Of a stretch of DNA of 64,000 nucleotides, positions 13,412 to 20,270 are shown piece by piece; the first letter of the stretch is position 1, and each line of letters starts with the position of its first letter. Below the pieces are notes generated by a model, which saw nothing but the letters and a program-made list of their open reading frames with translations, was not told where the DNA came from and made no database searches. The translations under genes were made by a program, and so were the position numbers. Location: assembly GCA_046483985.1 (NCBI GenBank), contig JAWOCD010000040.1, forward strand, positions 1 through 64,000, in the 5' to 3' direction. The DNA is from Promethearchaeia archaeon. Its GTDB lineage: Archaea > Asgardarchaeota > Lokiarchaeia > Sigyniarchaeales > SOKP01.

Positions 13412-14392
13412 ATGCGAAAAAAATTTGAGACATTACTCAAGCAAGTTACGGATCCGCGAACCCTTAAAAGAGCACAGCGTATTAAAAAATCCTCGCTGAA
13501 CATTATAGAAATAAATAAATCCGAGTCAATCGTTAAAGCGACTATTCAAGGTAGTAAAGTAGTACCTTATAAGTTGAATCTCAATCTATCTAATGGAGTA
13601 TTTTCCAAAAGCATAGAGCATGATTGCTCCGATTATTTACATAGAAGAAAAAAGAGAGGACAATTTTGCAAACACCTCGCCGTGTTATTTCAGCATGTAT
13701 TTGACCAAGATAATCACTTTGCGTGCACTTGTCTCAAGCAATTAATAAAGCAACGGGAAAATGCACTGCTTAGCCTCGAAGATAATGGAGATCTCAATCA
13801 CTTTATTTCTCCAGAGATTGAAGAAAATCTCCATTTTGAGTGCCACGGGTTTCAAGAGTTTTTTGAAAAGGTAAATTTAGACAAAATAACTCGTAATAAA
13901 CTTGAACTTATCCTCACAGAAGCAAAACAATACCCCGCCGCTTTAGGGGGGCATCATGGGGCATATCAAGGAGGATTATTTGACCACATTCTCTTGGTGA
14001 CAAATTATGCATATTATTTGCACAAAACCATGCATAACCAGACTGATCTTAAGAGGGTTGTGTTAACCGCGATCTACCACGATTTTGGGAAAATATCATA
14101 TTATGGATATAAAAAGAGCATCCCAGGTCGCCGCGTTCGAATTTCGAGAACAGCCTTACGAGACATACAAAGATATATCCAGTTAAAATATCAATATTCG
14201 GGAAAAGACCCTCATGTAGAAAGCGCATTAGGCGTGGTACGGAAATTTAATCTCCCAGCTGATCGAGAGATTGAGCGTGGAATAATTTTTCATCACGGAT
14301 CATGGAGCAAATATAAACCAAACGCCATGAATAAGATTGCCACGGTAGTGCACGTGGCAGATATGATGGCATCTCAGGTCCTCTATATTTAA
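13412..14392 (+). CDS. SWIM-type Zn finger fused to an HD-domain phosphohydrolase
   Basis: HDC-x-CKH SWIM-like motif; HD-domain motifs HHGAYQGGLFDH, YHDFGK, FHHG, HVADM (YhaM-like). Confidence 0.75.
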   Translation: MRKKFETLLKQVTDPRTLKRAQRIKKSSLNIIEINKSESIVKATIQGSKVVPYKLNLNLSNGVFSKSIEHDCSDYLHRRKKRGQFCKHLAVLFQHVFDQDNHFACTCLKQLIKQRENALLSLEDNGDLNHFISPEIEENLHFECHGFQEFFEKVNLDKITRNKLELILTEAKQYPAALGGHHGAYQGGLFDHILLVTNYAYYLHKTMHNQTDLKRVVLTAIYHDFGKISYYGYKKSIPGRRVRISRTALRDIQRYIQLKYQYSGKDPHVESALGVVRKFNLPADREIERGIIFHHGSWSKYKPNAMNKIATVVHVADMMASQVLYI

Positions 14393-14424: not shown

Positions 14425-15288
14425 TTAAAAGACAAAATGGGTTAGCAACGTGCCAAAAACAACTGCTAAGACTACAATCACCATAAAATAAATCCAATTA
14501 TTTGTTAATATTTTCTTCTTTTCCGGTTCTACTTCTATTTCGGGCTGTTTTTCAATCTTTGAGGCTTTTTGAGGAGTCTTCTCTTTTGGTTTTTCTTTTT
14601 CCTGGTCTTTTACTTTAGATCTTTCCGCAAGGGATGCTTTCTGAGAAGATGGGGGACGTTTTACAATTGGAGTTTTAAATTTTCCCCCGTAAGCTTCCAC
14701 AGCTTCGATTATAATGGTTCTAACTTCTTCTGGAAGCTCTTCCCTCATGATCTTAAAATCATGGGACTTAAAATCAACACCAATCGTGAGTTGATAATTT
14801 TCGGAAAAATCGTCATCAATAAACGTTTTAATCAAGGTGGATTTCCCAACAGCTGCAGGTCCTGCCAATAAAACTTTAAATGTAAAATGACCCTCCCCTC
14901 GAATTTCTCCTAAACGGGGTCGTAAATCAAACAAGCACATAACAGCCAACCGATTGAACAATACATCGACATTGTTATTTTCCAAAGCGGAAGTCTCAAT
15001 ATATTCAAAAAGGTTAAAATTATTAACTTTTTTTAAGATCTCTTCGCGAGAAACAGTTTCTCCTATGCTTTCTTTAAGATCTGACTTATTTCCCACTAGA
15101 ACTATGGGAATATTATCTGTAATTTTTCGAAGCTCTTTATGATAAGTATCCACTTTTTTAAAAGTTTCCGGGCGACTTAAATCAAATACAATTGCGGCAG
15201 CAGCAGTTCCCTTAAAAAAGTCCTTCTTGATCTCTTTAAAACGCTCTTGTCCGCCCGTATCAACTATAGTCATCGATATTTTAATCAT
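14425..15288 (-). CDS. Circularly permuted Rab-like GTPase with C-terminal transmembrane anchor
   Basis: Motif order: G3 DTGGQERF, G4 GNKSD, G5 ETSAL, then G1 GPAAVGKST, G2 TIGVDF. Then a K/E/P-rich linker and the hydrophobic tail WIYFMVIVVLAVVFGTLLTHFVF. Confidence 0.8.
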   Translation of the reverse strand: MIKISMTIVDTGGQERFKEIKKDFFKGTAAAAIVFDLSRPETFKKVDTYHKELRKITDNIPIVLVGNKSDLKESIGETVSREEILKKVNNFNLFEYIETSALENNNVDVLFNRLAVMCLFDLRPRLGEIRGEGHFTFKVLLAGPAAVGKSTLIKTFIDDDFSENYQLTIGVDFKSHDFKIMREELPEEVRTIIIEAVEAYGGKFKTPIVKRPPSSQKASLAERSKVKDQEKEKPKEKTPQKASKIEKQPEIEVEPEKKKILTNNWIYFMVIVVLAVVFGTLLTHFVF

Positions 15289-15398
15289 TGTAAGCCTTCT
15301 CAGAAAACTCTTTTTTTTTCATTATATTATAAGGTTTTAAAAGTTATAAACATTATAAAATTATGAAAATAATAGATAATATGGGGAATAGTAGAGAA

Positions 15399-15587
15399 TT
15401 GAACTACCACGGCATAGATGGCGTGGATTCGTAATATATTGAGGATTGCTGACATAACATCAGTTTGACATCCTCTCCAAACACATTCACCGTAGTCCCT
15501 ACGGTAGATTCATTATGAGTAAAGAGCTTGATAGTATTTTCTTCTAATTGCTTTATCCCCTCTTTTTTGATATTTTTGGACACATTT
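15399..15587 (-). mobile_element. tnpB: IS200/IS605 remnant: tnpB 3' end plus right end (omega-RNA region)
   Basis: The minus strand translates to NVSKNIKKEG...STVGTTVNVFGEDVK...ESTPSMPW*, a typical TnpB tail, and ends in hairpin CCACGCCATCTATGCCGTGG-TAGTTCAA. Confidence 0.75.
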
Positions 15588-15801
15588 ACTAAATTTGATT
15601 AGAATAAACAGCTCAGATCTCAGAAATGATTATTGATTTCTTTTTCCTATTCTTGGATGATCCCCTTCAAGCTAATAATTTAAATTTAAAGAGCCCTAAC
15701 AGCGTTTCTTTTTTAAAATTTATAAATTAAAAGACTAACTTTCTTGTATATCGTATTTCTAGTTTTCTTAATACAATCATAAAAATTTAGTAGATGAGAT
15801 C

Positions 15802-17346
15802 ATGAAAATGATAAGATCACTTAATCCCGCAACTTTAAAAATTAATGAATCGATAAAAGAAACGAAATCAGAAGAATTGATAAATATCATAAAAAAAACG
15901 CGGAAAGTACAGACAACATGGAAAAAAACTAGATTACAAATAAGAAAAGAGTTAATGAGAAAGTTATTAGAGTATATTTCTGAAAATATGGATGATATCG
16001 CTAAGATTATCCATAATGAAACGGGCAAACCCCGGATTGAGGCAATCAATTCCGATATTATCGCTGGTTTGGGAACTATAAGATATACCATTGATGTCTT
16101 AGAAGAGGTGCTTAAACCAGAAAAAATTGAATTCACCGGGATGAAAATTCCCATGTGGTATATGGGACGGTCCTCTTACATCCATCCGCAGCCTTTAGGT
16201 GTACTTGGAATAATTTCTCCGTGGAATTATCCGTTCGGAATTCCATTTAGTCAAATCGTAATGGCGATCGCTGTTGGAAACGGGGTAATTCTTAAGCCCT
16301 CATCGGAAACACCGCTTATCGGACTAAAAATGAAAGAGTTATTGGAAAAAGTAGGATTTCCTAAAAACTTAGTTCAAGTGGTCCCGGGACGAGGGAGCCG
16401 AATTGGATCTGCCTTAGTAAAATCTGATGTTGATAGAATTATCTTTACCGGAAGTGTTGGCGTGGGAAAAAGGATTATGGAAATGGCGTCTCAAAAGATA
16501 AAACCCGTTACGTTAGAATTGGGAGGAAAAAGTCCCATGATAATACTGAAAGATACGGCTCTTAAAAGGACTGTGAGCGGTGCAATCTGGGGAAGCTTTG
16601 TAAATGCGGGGCAAACATGTGCTGGGATTAAACGGATTTATGTTCAAGAAGAAATTTATGATGATTTTCTCGAGTTGTTTAAACAAAAGGCGGAAAAATT
16701 AAAACAAGGTTGGGATTGGGACGATCCCGAAATTTCTATAGGACCCGTCATCAATGAAAGCGCATTAAAAGATATGGAAGATCATGTAGCGAGGGCAAAA
16801 GAGCAAGGAGCTACGGTTCTTACTGGAGGAAAGAAAAGAAATGACTTAAAGGGCTACTTTTTTGAACCCACAATTCTTATTAATCTTTCTCAAGATATGG
16901 ACGCCGTTCAAGAGGAAATTTTTGGTCCAATTGTAACAGTTCTAAAGTTTTCTTCCAGTGATCAAGCAGTTAAAATGGCTAACGATACCAGTTTTGGTCT
17001 ATTTGGTTCGGTTTGGACCACCGATCTCGAGAATGGAGAAAAAATTGCAAAGCAAATGACTATGGGAACAGTTGCCATTAATAATCATGTCTATACGTAT
17101 GGATTACCGCATACACCATGGGGCGGCAATAAGAACAGTGGGATAGGACGAACTCACGGTAAGTTCGGGTTTGAAGAACTGTTGGAGCCCCATCACATCC
17201 ACATTGATAACGGGAAAATTAAAGAGGATCCATGGTGGCAGCCCTATAATAGAGAGAAACTTAAATTACAATCGGATATCAATGACGTCTTATTCCGAAA
17301 AAAATACCTGAAAATGTTCAAATTAATAAAAAAGTTAAAAAAATAG
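15802..17346 (+). CDS. Aldehyde dehydrogenase family protein
   Basis: Motifs PWNYP, KPSSETP, FTGS, LELGGKS, GQTCA, EEIFGP. Confidence 0.95.
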   Translation: MKMIRSLNPATLKINESIKETKSEELINIIKKTRKVQTTWKKTRLQIRKELMRKLLEYISENMDDIAKIIHNETGKPRIEAINSDIIAGLGTIRYTIDVLEEVLKPEKIEFTGMKIPMWYMGRSSYIHPQPLGVLGIISPWNYPFGIPFSQIVMAIAVGNGVILKPSSETPLIGLKMKELLEKVGFPKNLVQVVPGRGSRIGSALVKSDVDRIIFTGSVGVGKRIMEMASQKIKPVTLELGGKSPMIILKDTALKRTVSGAIWGSFVNAGQTCAGIKRIYVQEEIYDDFLELFKQKAEKLKQGWDWDDPEISIGPVINESALKDMEDHVARAKEQGATVLTGGKKRNDLKGYFFEPTILINLSQDMDAVQEEIFGPIVTVLKFSSSDQAVKMANDTSFGLFGSVWTTDLENGEKIAKQMTMGTVAINNHVYTYGLPHTPWGGNKNSGIGRTHGKFGFEELLEPHHIHIDNGKIKEDPWWQPYNREKLKLQSDINDVLFRKKYLKMFKLIKKLKK

Positions 17347-17404
17347 TTGCTTGGATTTTGACCAGAGGAGGAAAAAGTAGAAAGCCTTTATTTTGGAAAA
17401 AAAT

Positions 17405-17797
17405 TCAATAATCGATCTTAGATCCGCATTCTGGACAATATTTTCCACGCGCTCTTGCTCCACATAACGGACAAAATTGATGGCTCTCATTTGGTTTTGT
17501 CGAGCTTACTTCCTCTTCATAAGTTGTTTCTATCACATTTTCTCTTCTTATATTTTGGTTGCGTTGATATTGGGGTCTTATATTAGCTTGACGATTCTCT
17601 TGGCGTTCCGAATAATTCCATCTCCTTTTTTCCATCCTCTTTGCACGATTTTTACTGGAGATCCCGGTGCATAACAGACAAAGTCCAAGAAATGTCGTTG
17701 AGAACATAAAAGGAAACCACAATAGTAAGGTCCAATCTAAAATTATTAAGATCAAACCTAATGCAATCAAAATATTGCTTCTCTTGTCCGAGTCCAT
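17405..17797 (-). CDS. Small membrane protein with C-terminal double Zn ribbon
   Basis: Two N-terminal hydrophobic segments; CPLCG...CPECG. Confidence 0.75.
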   Translation of the reverse strand: MDSDKRSNILIALGLILIILDWTLLLWFPFMFSTTFLGLCLLCTGISSKNRAKRMEKRRWNYSERQENRQANIRPQYQRNQNIRRENVIETTYEEEVSSTKPNESHQFCPLCGARARGKYCPECGSKIDY

Positions 17798-17957
17798 TTT
17801 ATTTATCTTTTTTTTCCTTATTTATATTATTAGAAATAAAATTAGCATAATAATTTAGCTATATATTTTGCTGTGAACATGAGATTTTAACAAATCAAAA
17901 ATTCCATATTCTATTATGATTTATAATAAGTATAATACTATTCTATATGACCTTCTT

Positions 17958-20270
17958 ATGGTAGATTTTGAGCAATTTATCAAGTATCTCAAATCGCAGG
18001 ACTTCTATGACGATCAAATTTCCCATATTGAGCATATTAATCCGACGGAGGCGAATTACGGGAAAATAAATAGACCCTTATGGGAGAGATTACAATATTG
18101 GTTACATAAAAACCAAATTAAGTTATGGGCTCACCAGACCAAGGCCATAAATGCTATTAGAAGGGATAAAAATACAGTGATTGTGACCTCCACCGCATCG
18201 GGAAAATCGCTCTGTTATAATTTACCGGTATTAGATCATCTCTCAAAGGACCCCAACAGCACGGCGCTTTACCTCTTTCCTACGAAAGCACTAACCCGAG
18301 ATCAGTATACCACTTTGACCAGTCTAATGTCAGATATCAAAATTAATCTCGATCGGGTGGGCGTCTATGACGGAGATATAGACTCGTATCAGAAACGGAA
18401 AATTTTAAGGGACGCAAATATCATTATGACAAATCCCTATGGCTTGCATTATTACCTTCCTTGGTTTAAAAAAAAATGGCATCGGGTCTGTCAAAATCTA
18501 AAATACATTGTGTTAGACGAGATTCATATCTATCGCGGAATTTTTGGCAGTAATTTTGCATTTCTTCTTCGCAGGCTGAAGCGCATTCTGGGCTCTTACG
18601 GGGTAAACCCCATATGGATATTATGTAGTGCAACTATAAAAAATCCCGGGAAGTTTGCCTCTAAACTTGTTGGGGAAGATTTTGTAGTGATTGATGAAGA
18701 CGGATCCCCCTCTGGCCCAAAGAAAGTTATCCTCTGGGACCTTCCTTACGATGAGACCTCAAATAAATATCGCTCTGCCCATCAAGAGACCCAAAATTTA
18801 TACAAAAGTCACCTAAGAAAGAACATTCAGACTTTGGCTTTTACACTTTCTCGAAAAATGGCAGAGTTGCATGCAATTTGGACTCGTAATTCTCTAAAAG
18901 GAATAAAGAATAAGATTGTGAGTTACCGAGCGGGTATTTCAAAATCCAAGCGAAGAGAAATCGAGAACGCCCTAAAGCAAAGGGAAGTCCTAGGGGTTAG
19001 CTCTACGAATGCTTTAGAATTAGGTATTGATATCGGGTCCCTTGACGCCACGATCAGTTCTGGATTTCCGGGGACTATCTCAAGCTTTAAACAGCAGATC
19101 GGGCGTTCCGGGCGGGGGGCAAACCTCTCTATTTCTACCTACGTACCTATGCAAAATCCCTTAGATCTTTTTTATATCCATAACCCTGAGAAATTATTCG
19201 GACCTATCGAAGAAGAGGTCTTAATATCTACTTCTAATCAATACATCGTAAAGAATCATCTATGTTGTGCTGCAAAAGAAAGTCCCTTAACTATAGATGA
19301 ATATACAAAATTTGAATTTGACGATAAAGATGAATTCGAAGAGATTCTCATTGCTTTATGCGAAGAAGATCTTTTAATGCAGCGCGGAAAGAAATATTTC
19401 TGGAAAGGCGGTTTTTATCCCAATAAAGAATACAATTTAACTAATCTTTCCGATAATGCTTATAAAGTTATGCTGCAGACACCTGGTGGAGATGTATTAC
19501 TTACCACAGAGGATGAAAGCTATGTATTTCGTGACCTCCATCCAGGAGCAGTCTACTTATATGAAGCAGAGTCCTATGTCGTGAGTGAATTAGACTTAGA
19601 TCAAAGAGTTGTGTATATTTCCAAAGCTGATGTGAATTACTATACTCAATCGTTAAAACATACTGAAATTACGTCCTTGGAAGTATTGGATGAGAAACAA
19701 ACGGGCCCGAACGAAAATATTACCGCGTTTTTTGGGAATGTCAAGGTCGAATATGATTATTATTCCTATAAAGTGATAGACACGGTTTCTCAAGAAATTA
19801 TTTCCCGAAAGCCATTGGAGAACATCCCTTTAATTGAATTTGAAACCCAAGCGTTCTGGTTCTTAATTCCCTTTGAATATCAAAAAGATTTAGAGATGAA
19901 GGGATTGGATTTAGGAGGGGGAATCCATGCCATCGAACACGCTATGATTGCCATCAGTCCCGCCCTTGCTCAAATATCCCGCTGGGATTTGGGTGGGGTA
20001 TCCATCGATTTTGACCCCATTGAACAACAACCCGTGATTTACATTTATGACGCCTTTAAAGGAGGTATCGGAATTGCAGAATCACTATATTACAATTTTA
20101 ACCAATTGGCAGCTCTCAGCAATGATTTAATGGAAACTTGCGGCTGCGAAGGAGATAATGGATGTCCAGGCTGTATCATGTCAAGTCGTTGCGGAAACAA
20201 TAATTCCCCTCTCTCTAAGGAGGCAGCTCTCTTCCTAATGGGTAAAATGTTGGATAATTTTAGTGAATAA
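17958..20270 (+). CDS. DEAH helicase with C-terminal DUF1998 Cys cluster (Hrq1/MrfA/SftH family)
   Basis: Motifs TSTASGKS, DEIH, SAT, ALELGIDIG, QQIGRSGR, and CGC...GCPGC...C. ATG at 17958 preferred over 17916. Confidence 0.92.
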   Translation: MVDFEQFIKYLKSQDFYDDQISHIEHINPTEANYGKINRPLWERLQYWLHKNQIKLWAHQTKAINAIRRDKNTVIVTSTASGKSLCYNLPVLDHLSKDPNSTALYLFPTKALTRDQYTTLTSLMSDIKINLDRVGVYDGDIDSYQKRKILRDANIIMTNPYGLHYYLPWFKKKWHRVCQNLKYIVLDEIHIYRGIFGSNFAFLLRRLKRILGSYGVNPIWILCSATIKNPGKFASKLVGEDFVVIDEDGSPSGPKKVILWDLPYDETSNKYRSAHQETQNLYKSHLRKNIQTLAFTLSRKMAELHAIWTRNSLKGIKNKIVSYRAGISKSKRREIENALKQREVLGVSSTNALELGIDIGSLDATISSGFPGTISSFKQQIGRSGRGANLSISTYVPMQNPLDLFYIHNPEKLFGPIEEEVLISTSNQYIVKNHLCCAAKESPLTIDEYTKFEFDDKDEFEEILIALCEEDLLMQRGKKYFWKGGFYPNKEYNLTNLSDNAYKVMLQTPGGDVLLTTEDESYVFRDLHPGAVYLYEAESYVVSELDLDQRVVYISKADVNYYTQSLKHTEITSLEVLDEKQTGPNENITAFFGNVKVEYDYYSYKVIDTVSQEIISRKPLENIPLIEFETQAFWFLIPFEYQKDLEMKGLDLGGGIHAIEHAMIAISPALAQISRWDLGGVSIDFDPIEQQPVIYIYDAFKGGIGIAESLYYNFNQLAALSNDLMETCGCEGDNGCPGCIMSSRCGNNNSPLSKEAALFLMGKMLDNFSE

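Follow-up and report, generated by a model that had tools for sequence, protein, structure and literature searches.

The gene at 14425..15288 (minus strand) of contig JAWOCD010000040.1, from assembly GCA_046483985.1 of a Promethearchaeia archaeon (Asgardarchaeota, Lokiarchaeia, Sigyniarchaeales, SOKP01), raises the question of whether a small Ras-like (RasL) GTPase can work when the conserved motifs of its G domain stand in the order G3-G4-G5-G1-G2, and how such a protein is held at the membrane. We analysed positions 1-64,000 of the contig, and this whole stretch is referred to as the window. The coding sequence starts with ATG and specifies 287 amino acids plus stop; all features of the gene given below lie on its own (minus) strand. 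We consider it likely that the product is a functional, circularly permuted Asgard RasL GTPase with a membrane-tethered switch role, and infer from the sequence that it would bind and hydrolyse GTP, insert into the membrane and act there as a switch that recruits partners.

Motif order and predicted fold

Each motif occurs once along the 287-residue protein, and the Ras profile of Pfam (PF00071, expectation value (E) 1.1e-37) matches it in two separate stretches: residues 3-115 correspond to profile positions 47-157, with the P-loop further along the chain. The canonical order G1-G2-G3-G4-G5 is not found, since G1 stands at residue 143, behind profile positions 47-157. The first half (residues 1-121, 14926..15288, profile positions 47-157) contains β3, G3, α2, β4, α3, β5, G4, α4, β6, G5 and α5, with G3 as DTGGQ (residues 10-14, 15247..15261), G4 as NKSD (residues 67-70, 15079..15090) and G5 as ETSAL (residues 98-102, 14983..14997). 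A new junction from α5 to β1 (residues 122-133, 14890..14925), which carries the family signature PRLGE, leads to the second half (residues 134-180, 14749..14889, profile positions 1-46), formed by β1, G1, α1, switch I with G2, and β2. Here G1 is the P-loop GPAAVGKS (residues 143-150, 14839..14862), with Ala-Ala at the positions of Ras G12 and G13, and the G2 threonine is T168 in TIGVDF (14785..14787). An extra helix after β2 (residues 183-199, 14692..14742) occupies the place of the β2-β3 hairpin turn. An earlier, sequence-only reading of the locus had proposed this order, with every motif intact and present once, and had placed the cut in the β2-β3 hairpin; the split profile match bears out both claims, together with the order found in 118 of the 120 best homologues (below) for the first and the strand order of the structural model for the second.

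The nearest upstream in-frame stop is a TGA 11 codons 5' of the ATG (15319..15321), and a Shine-Dalgarno-like run, GAGAAGG, ends 6 nt before the start (15295..15301). As the upstream frame is closed and the ATG is preceded by this run, there is no hidden N-terminal G1, which had already been argued from the TGA. Sequence reading also reveals an AT-rich, TATA-like stretch upstream of the start (about 15321-15360). In several orthologues (loci L016, L018, L020, L023, L034 and others) no ATG is present ahead of β3, the open frame beginning ...LEFISNLKITL...; these may start at other codons, and the window copy has a normal ATG. The RabF motifs, reportedly defined by Pereira-Leal and Seabra in 2000, are IGVDF, KLQIW, RFRSIT, YYRGA and LVYDIT. 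The protein contains IGVDF exactly, whereas KISMTIV, RFKEIK, FFKGTA and IVFDLS are merely similar to the remaining four.

The AlphaFold2 model, built with the family alignment, has a mean predicted local distance difference test (pLDDT) score of 75.8 and a predicted template modelling (pTM) score of 0.63. Within the G domain most 10-residue blocks have pLDDT values of 80-96, those of residues 11-20 and 121-130 being lower, and the secondary structure runs β3, α2, β4, α3, β5, α4, β6, α5, β1, α1, β2. The top matches in Foldseek are Rab43, Ypt51, Sec4, Rab6, Rab5 and Rab11, across about 105 residues, a span to be expected from a sequential aligner. Comparison with 48,161 chains by VIA-align gave two kinds of superposition: Rho/Rab chains fit model residues 1-120 (Z 12-13.6, root-mean-square deviation 1.4-2.0 Å), and YlqF/YqeH/RsgA-type GTPases fit model residues 14-179, spanning the new junction, with Z 11-12.4 (for example 8pv1_Cd, Z 12.4 with 143 residues aligned; YqeH 3h2y, Z 11.6; YlqF 1puj, Z 11.0; RsgA 6h4d, Z 11.0). 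Since residues 14-120 are shared by the two superpositions, the model represents one complete G domain, so that the single domain expected from structure prediction was obtained, and the alternative outcome, two halves that do not fold together, was not. In the model, then, the two halves form one complete G domain. The related proposal that the permutation uncouples switch I from switch II holds in one respect, as the covalent link between them is lost, but β2 and β3 are both present in a modelled fold that superposes on solved G domains.

Permuted G domains of two other kinds are known. The YRG proteins (YlqF-RbgA, YqeH and RsgA), those that superpose on model residues 14-179, also fold normally; however, their order is G4-G5-G1-G2-G3, with the cut between strand 3 and helix 2 (PMC2430557), whereas the window GTPase has G3 first. 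They act in ribosome assembly in all forms of life and belong to the TRAFAC class; they are not Ras-like, as the window GTPase is. The order G4-G5-G1-G2-G3 had been taken as the only known permutation, which is incorrect: Elias and Novotny 2008 (Biol Direct 3:21, PMC2430557) described the eukaryotic cpRAS with the order G3-G4-G5-G1-G2, in which the chain is interrupted between strands 2 and 3 and helix 5 leads into strand 1, that is, the same motif order and the same break as in the window GTPase. They presented cpRAS as a rebuttal to the claim that a cut between strands 2 and 3 would prevent folding, an argument about the interswitch hairpin that they cite from Anand et al. The cpRAS domains are members of the RAS family in the strict sense, have TIE as G2 motif, lie inside eukaryotic proteins of 840-3933 residues with VWA or COG2373 regions and are described as eukaryote-specific (PMC2430557), whereas the window protein is small, stand-alone and archaeal, has TIGVDF as G2 and finds its best structural matches among Rab and Rho proteins. 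Its family also differs from cpRAS in having an archaeal canonical RasL subfamily as sister group, and from this sister group the archaeal family is likely to have arisen independently of cpRAS.

The family itself has been flagged before. Table S3 of Vargova et al. 2024 (bioRxiv 10.1101/2024.02.28.582541) lists two proteins of Lokiarchaeum GC14_75, KKK41097.1 and KKK43026.1, as RasL with the remark "Circularly permuted sequence"; the permuted proteins were merely de-permuted for alignment, and neither 'permut' nor 'transmembrane' occurs in the main text of the preprint. The segment of KKK41097.1 that comprises α5, the linker, β1, G1 and G2 aligns without gaps to residues 110-180 of the window GTPase (51% identity, E 7e-25), and it therefore belongs to the same family. 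Both GC14_75 proteins start at β3 and carry the signatures KITLS.WD.AGQERF, YIETSALE and PR.GEI, like the window GTPase, but they are soluble, with a basic amphipathic tail in place of the transmembrane (TM) tail anchor. No main-text description of a permuted Asgard small GTPase was found in the literature searched. With the family flagged and the type of permutation published, the family is uncharacterised rather than new; what the present analysis adds is the probably ancestral anchor, a sister subfamily of RasL genes that lie head to tail, and an upstream repeat without a link to TnpB.

Conservation and membrane attachment

A search of 5.8 billion proteins returned 786 matches to the permuted GTPase. 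Among the 120 best, 118 likewise begin at β3 and place G3, G4 and G1 near residues 10, 67 and 143, respectively, the start and order for which the sequence-only reading had suggested a search, and the two exceptions are a fragment and a sequence whose G4 misses the search pattern. Agreement on this scale in order and start means that the permutation is no chance event. In an alignment of 46 sequences with 42-76% identity to the query, the start of the window copy aligns with those of its orthologues, and D10, G13, Q14, N67, K68, T99, S100, A101, G143, G148, K149 and T168 are invariant, with D70 at least 90% conserved. Also invariant in the family are E98, A145 and V147, as well as G127 and E128 of the new junction and E188 of the extra helix, where P186 is at least 90% conserved. 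The relatives have 207-755 residues, with the G domain N-terminal; the closest are P0002 (76% identity) and P0004 (60%), for whose DNA genome and metagenome scans gave nothing close.

The gene is under strong purifying selection, as had been anticipated. Codon alignments of 32 species representatives gave a median ratio of nonsynonymous to synonymous substitution rates (dN/dS) of 0.089 over 134 pairs with dS below 1.5, similar for anchored and soluble types, the pairs that include the window gene being saturated at synonymous sites. A search with residues 1-200 and an E cutoff of 1e-30 found the permuted gene in 67 of the 400 genomes sampled from the phylum, a lower bound with eight candidates per genome scored: 63 of 134 genomes of its own family and 3 of 14 of a second family of the same order. 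In the same search it was not found outside these two families. The genome to which the window belongs has about 45 Ras-like genes, only one of them permuted, and each of the five other genomes with all candidates scored also has exactly one permuted copy.

The part of the protein that follows the extra helix consists of a disordered linker rich in Lys, Glu and Pro (residues 200-262, 14503..14691), with a net charge of +8, and of a predicted C-terminal TM tail anchor (residues 263-287, 14428..14502). The best 19-residue hydrophobic window is 268-286, with a Kyte-Doolittle mean of 2.54, and it lies in the single predicted TM helix, at the extreme C-terminus. In the model a helix covers residues 263-286, one residue short of the end, with pLDDT 94-97 over 270-287, and the homologues end alike. 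There is no prenylation motif: the sole Cys is C118 and the C-terminus reads ...LLTHFVF. Hydropathy, the model helix and the lone Cys agree with the earlier description of a charged linker and a single terminal TM helix in place of lipidation, and the predicted anchor would thus stand in for a lipid. Get3/ArsA genes were considered as a clue to tail-anchor insertion; two are present, yet the Get3/ArsA family has matches in 14 of 14 control genomes, which makes them uninformative.

Miro/Gem1, Toc34 and the Rabs likewise hold a cytosolic G domain at a membrane by a C-terminal anchor that follows a flexible linker, and N-terminal GTPase chains of Miro1 are among the structural matches of the model (6d71_B, Z 11.0; 9e2p_C, Z 9.6). 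Miro, however, has two canonical G domains and EF hands, whereas the window protein has a single G domain and no EF-hand match in Pfam. Toc34 belongs to a different GTPase class, and the Rabs have lipid anchors and cycle on and off the membrane, in contrast to a TM-anchored protein. None of the three is permuted.

Membrane association extends to the more distant relatives. In the second family of the order the permuted G domain heads membrane proteins of 442 residues (L053:6403-7728, plus strand) and 708 residues (L062:61-2184, plus strand), in which it is followed by a long linker rich in Pro, Glu and Lys, a conserved domain of about 100 residues and of unknown kind, with motifs like P.FPGCI ... 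ITP ... GD.E.A, and C-terminal TM helices. The divergent clusters at 50% identity (316-755 residues) likewise end in TM helices. In a tree rooted on the second family (f3), genera g1, g3, g7 and g10 are anchored and the soluble forms are confined to genus g11, with at least three changes of state needed. As the outgroup and all the genera on the tree except g11 are anchored, the anchor is probably ancestral, and the soluble type, to which the proteins flagged in the preprint belong, probably derives from it by loss of the anchor within g11. In the soluble tails there is an amphipathic helix of basic character, for example LIKKSVKGYKKILKKYRK, with a hydrophobic moment of 0.70, which would suit peripheral membrane binding.

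The proposed switch and its alternatives

In the mechanism that we propose, the chain begins at β3, passes through G3, G4, G5 and α5 and then, after the 12-residue PRLGE junction, through β1, the P-loop, α1, switch I and β2, and its halves would fold as an ordinary G domain with an intact nucleotide pocket. The G domain would face the cytoplasm, tethered to the membrane through a flexible linker of about 60 charged residues, comparable to a Rab, which sits on a hypervariable tail plus prenyl groups. There it would cycle between GTP and GDP and recruit a partner at the membrane in one of the two states. The membrane tether would leave the G domain at the interswitch end of β2, not at α5.

This last feature could make the permutation itself functional: a nucleotide-driven shift in the register of β2, modelled on the interswitch toggle of Arf, would pull directly on the post-β2 helix and on the anchor, and so couple the GTP state to a movement close to the membrane. 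The amphipathic basic helix found at the same place in the soluble descendants fits a nucleotide-gated membrane-binding helix. If true, this would be a coupling that is impossible for any canonical small GTPase, although we regard the idea as unlikely.

Several observations weigh against the switch that we favour. The P-loop has Ala-Ala where Ras has G12 and G13, which could slow hydrolysis, and switch I (residues 160-169) is, with the linker, a low-confidence part of the model. The branch that leads to the window copy is long (0.89, where the median is 0.065). In the related loci examined there is no conserved partner gene that points to a pathway, and searches of the whole genome (completeness 97%) with the queries used recovered neither the methyltransferase nor the 683-residue protein that precede the permuted gene in relatives; these two are therefore not obligatory partners, and the context gives no pathway.

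The Ala-Ala pair bears on the possibility that the protein is a nucleotide-locked scaffold, which would bind guanine nucleotide without cycling and serve as a permanent docking site at the membrane. Changes at G12 of Ras impair hydrolysis assisted by GTPase-activating proteins, the two alanines are invariant in the family, and a permanent TM anchor removes the on/off membrane cycle of the Rabs. Nevertheless, the catalytic Gln in DTGGQ is invariant, and so are the switch I Thr and the full set of Mg and phosphate ligands, as expected if hydrolysis matters, and the canonical sister RasL genes share the AAAVGK or AGAVGK loop, which makes the Ala-Ala a trait of the subfamily rather than a signature of decay. 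We thus find a locked scaffold quite improbable. Very improbable, in our judgement, is a nucleotide-dependent pairing of G domains in the style of atlastin or Toc34, by which the protein would tether or remodel membranes instead of recruiting effectors: membrane-tethering GTPases do have this layout, a G domain joined to a TM anchor by a long flexible linker, and the sister family has forms with an extra conserved domain and several TM helices, but the fold and the best matches are of the Rab/Rho type and not of the dynamin, septin or Toc classes. Almost no credence can be given to a non-working, truncated or decaying remnant of a tandem GTPase cut by an upstream mobile element, which the repeat 110 bp upstream, the missing ancestral upstream gene cluster and the head-to-tail RasL pairs of this and related genomes might suggest, given orthologues with the same start strand and order in 67 of 400 sampled genomes, invariant motifs, a dN/dS of 0.09, a start that aligns with those of the orthologues, longer homologues that match as single ordinary Ras domains or eukaryote-type Rab arrays, and a repeat without association to TnpB. 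The membrane-tethered switch remains our preferred reading.

Origin and genomic surroundings of the family

To place the family, 28 members, de-permuted by script, were combined with 34 canonical RasL domains of the genome under study and two gene pairs from related genomes, and a tree was calculated in a careful IQ-TREE run; the origin trees were built without eukaryotic sequences, those of cpRAS included, and the GC14_75 sequences are likewise not on them. The permuted proteins form one clade (support 100/99), and the sister canonical subfamily another (100/99). The two group together with support 96/92, and this joint clade was recovered in 95% of the bootstrap trees. Common to both groups are an AAAVGK P-loop and the signatures YKLTVG.D, VFDL[ST]R..TF and NK.DL followed by G..[IV].R. 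The best structural matches of the window GTPase are Rabs, and Vargova et al. 2024 (bioRxiv 10.1101/2024.02.28.582541) found no Asgard sequence specifically sister to them.

The members of the sister subfamily occur as head-to-tail pairs. In the genome under study the pair lies at C116:12241-12765 and C116:11632-12207, on the minus strand and in the same frame; in one related genome (G208) two such genes are in frame with a single TAA stop between them, and in another (G203) five codons separate them. Like the C116 pair, the head-to-tail RasL genes at L064:1797-2891 and L065:1745-2851 lie on one strand and in one frame. A profile built from the permuted proteins only places the C116 pair on top with both halves: with the first half the pair reaches 108 and 107 bits, the next gene 89, and with the second half the pair reaches 59 and 56 bits, against 56 and 45. 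For the upstream gene of the C116 pair, every one of the 134 sampled genomes of the family has an orthologue, in most cases 82-86% identical, and orthologues also occur across the order, which indicates that the subfamily is older and more widespread than the permuted family. Taken together, these sequence relationships suggest that the permuted gene probably had a single origin, in the common ancestor of two families within a single Asgard order, and that it descends from a duplicated gene of the canonical RasL subfamily.

How the permutation came about is less certain. The route that we consider is duplication, fusion and loss, in which a head-to-tail RasL pair would have fused and both outer ends would then have been lost. 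The earlier proposal of a tandem GTPase as ancestor gains from the head-to-tail arrangement of the sister subfamily. Against it stand the absence of any half-specific signal, since the G3-G5 half has no preference for the upstream copy and the G1-G2 half none for the downstream copy, and the failure to find a fused archaeal tandem intermediate in a library of 1.84 billion proteins. The route is plausible, with circumstantial support, and we give it about even chances.

The orthologues proved not to be full tandem GTPases of which the window copy would be a truncated version. Longer homologues (504-2000 residues) were examined as tandem orthologues and rejected, as their matches cover only about 39% of the query, with an identity of about 40%; a family of 519 residues among the homologues has one canonical G domain (G1 at 171) behind an N-terminal region of 160 residues. 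The fused double and triple GTPases in the same library were also set aside as relatives, being of eukaryote-type Rab sequence. The three such records that name an organism are eukaryotic (Solemya, Rotaria and Centaurea), and the rest, of unknown origin, come from metagenomes.

A tnpB remnant had been proposed about 110 bp upstream of the gene, which the present data do not support. The element at 15399-15590 belongs to an interspersed repeat that occurs 37 times in the genome, in copies of about 110-190 bp and 70-89% identity, most of which share one sharp end (15399 here), and short hairpins such as CCGTAGGGACTACGG lie within it. Neither Rfam nor Pfam matches the repeat, the frames upstream of the gene have no Pfam match, and all 37 copies are more than 600 nt away from the 26 matches to the TnpB zinc ribbon (TNB). 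A gene start is found within 400 nt in 11 of 22 copies, so the repeat is not consistently placed before genes; it marks the breakpoint of synteny with relatives and may be a MITE-like element (miniature inverted-repeat transposable element). The 26 zinc-ribbon (PF07282) matches of this genome, for example at C74:120035-120226 and C33:12069-12272, are mostly in short frames of 55-174 residues, which suggests numerous decayed IS200/IS605-type elements.

In relatives the permuted GTPase is the last gene of a co-oriented run that comprises an MrfA/Hrq1-like helicase, a canonical small GTPase of 177 residues, a thioredoxin-like protein, the 683-residue protein, which is of unknown function, and the methyltransferase, with a gap of 16-25 nt or an overlap between methyltransferase and GTPase. 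In the window this upstream side is rearranged: a 513-bp spacer, which includes the repeat, is followed by an aldehyde dehydrogenase-like open reading frame (15802-17346, named from its sequence), a zinc-ribbon membrane protein of 130 residues (17405-17797, minus strand) and the MrfA/Hrq1-like helicase (17916-20270), and the methyltransferase, the 683-residue protein and the thioredoxin-like gene are absent from 15802-20270. On the other side, convergent with the GTPase gene, a protein of 326 residues (13412-14392, plus strand) has a C-terminal HD domain (PF01966, E 4e-8). It adjoins the permuted gene in 5 of the 10 related loci examined, and the acyl-CoA dehydrogenase genes beyond it are also syntenic.

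Asgard small GTPases are studied as forerunners of the switches of eukaryotic membrane traffic, and the value of the present family lies in characterisation rather than discovery, with a protein that is small and should express easily. In this family a Ras-like G domain withstands an interruption of the interswitch hairpin, apparently independently of cpRAS, and has been kept as a single-copy gene under strong purifying selection. It also illustrates an archaeal route to hold a Rab-like switch at the membrane without a lipid, by a predicted tail anchor on a long linker, and one in which, within a single genus, this anchor has probably been replaced by a basic amphipathic tail.

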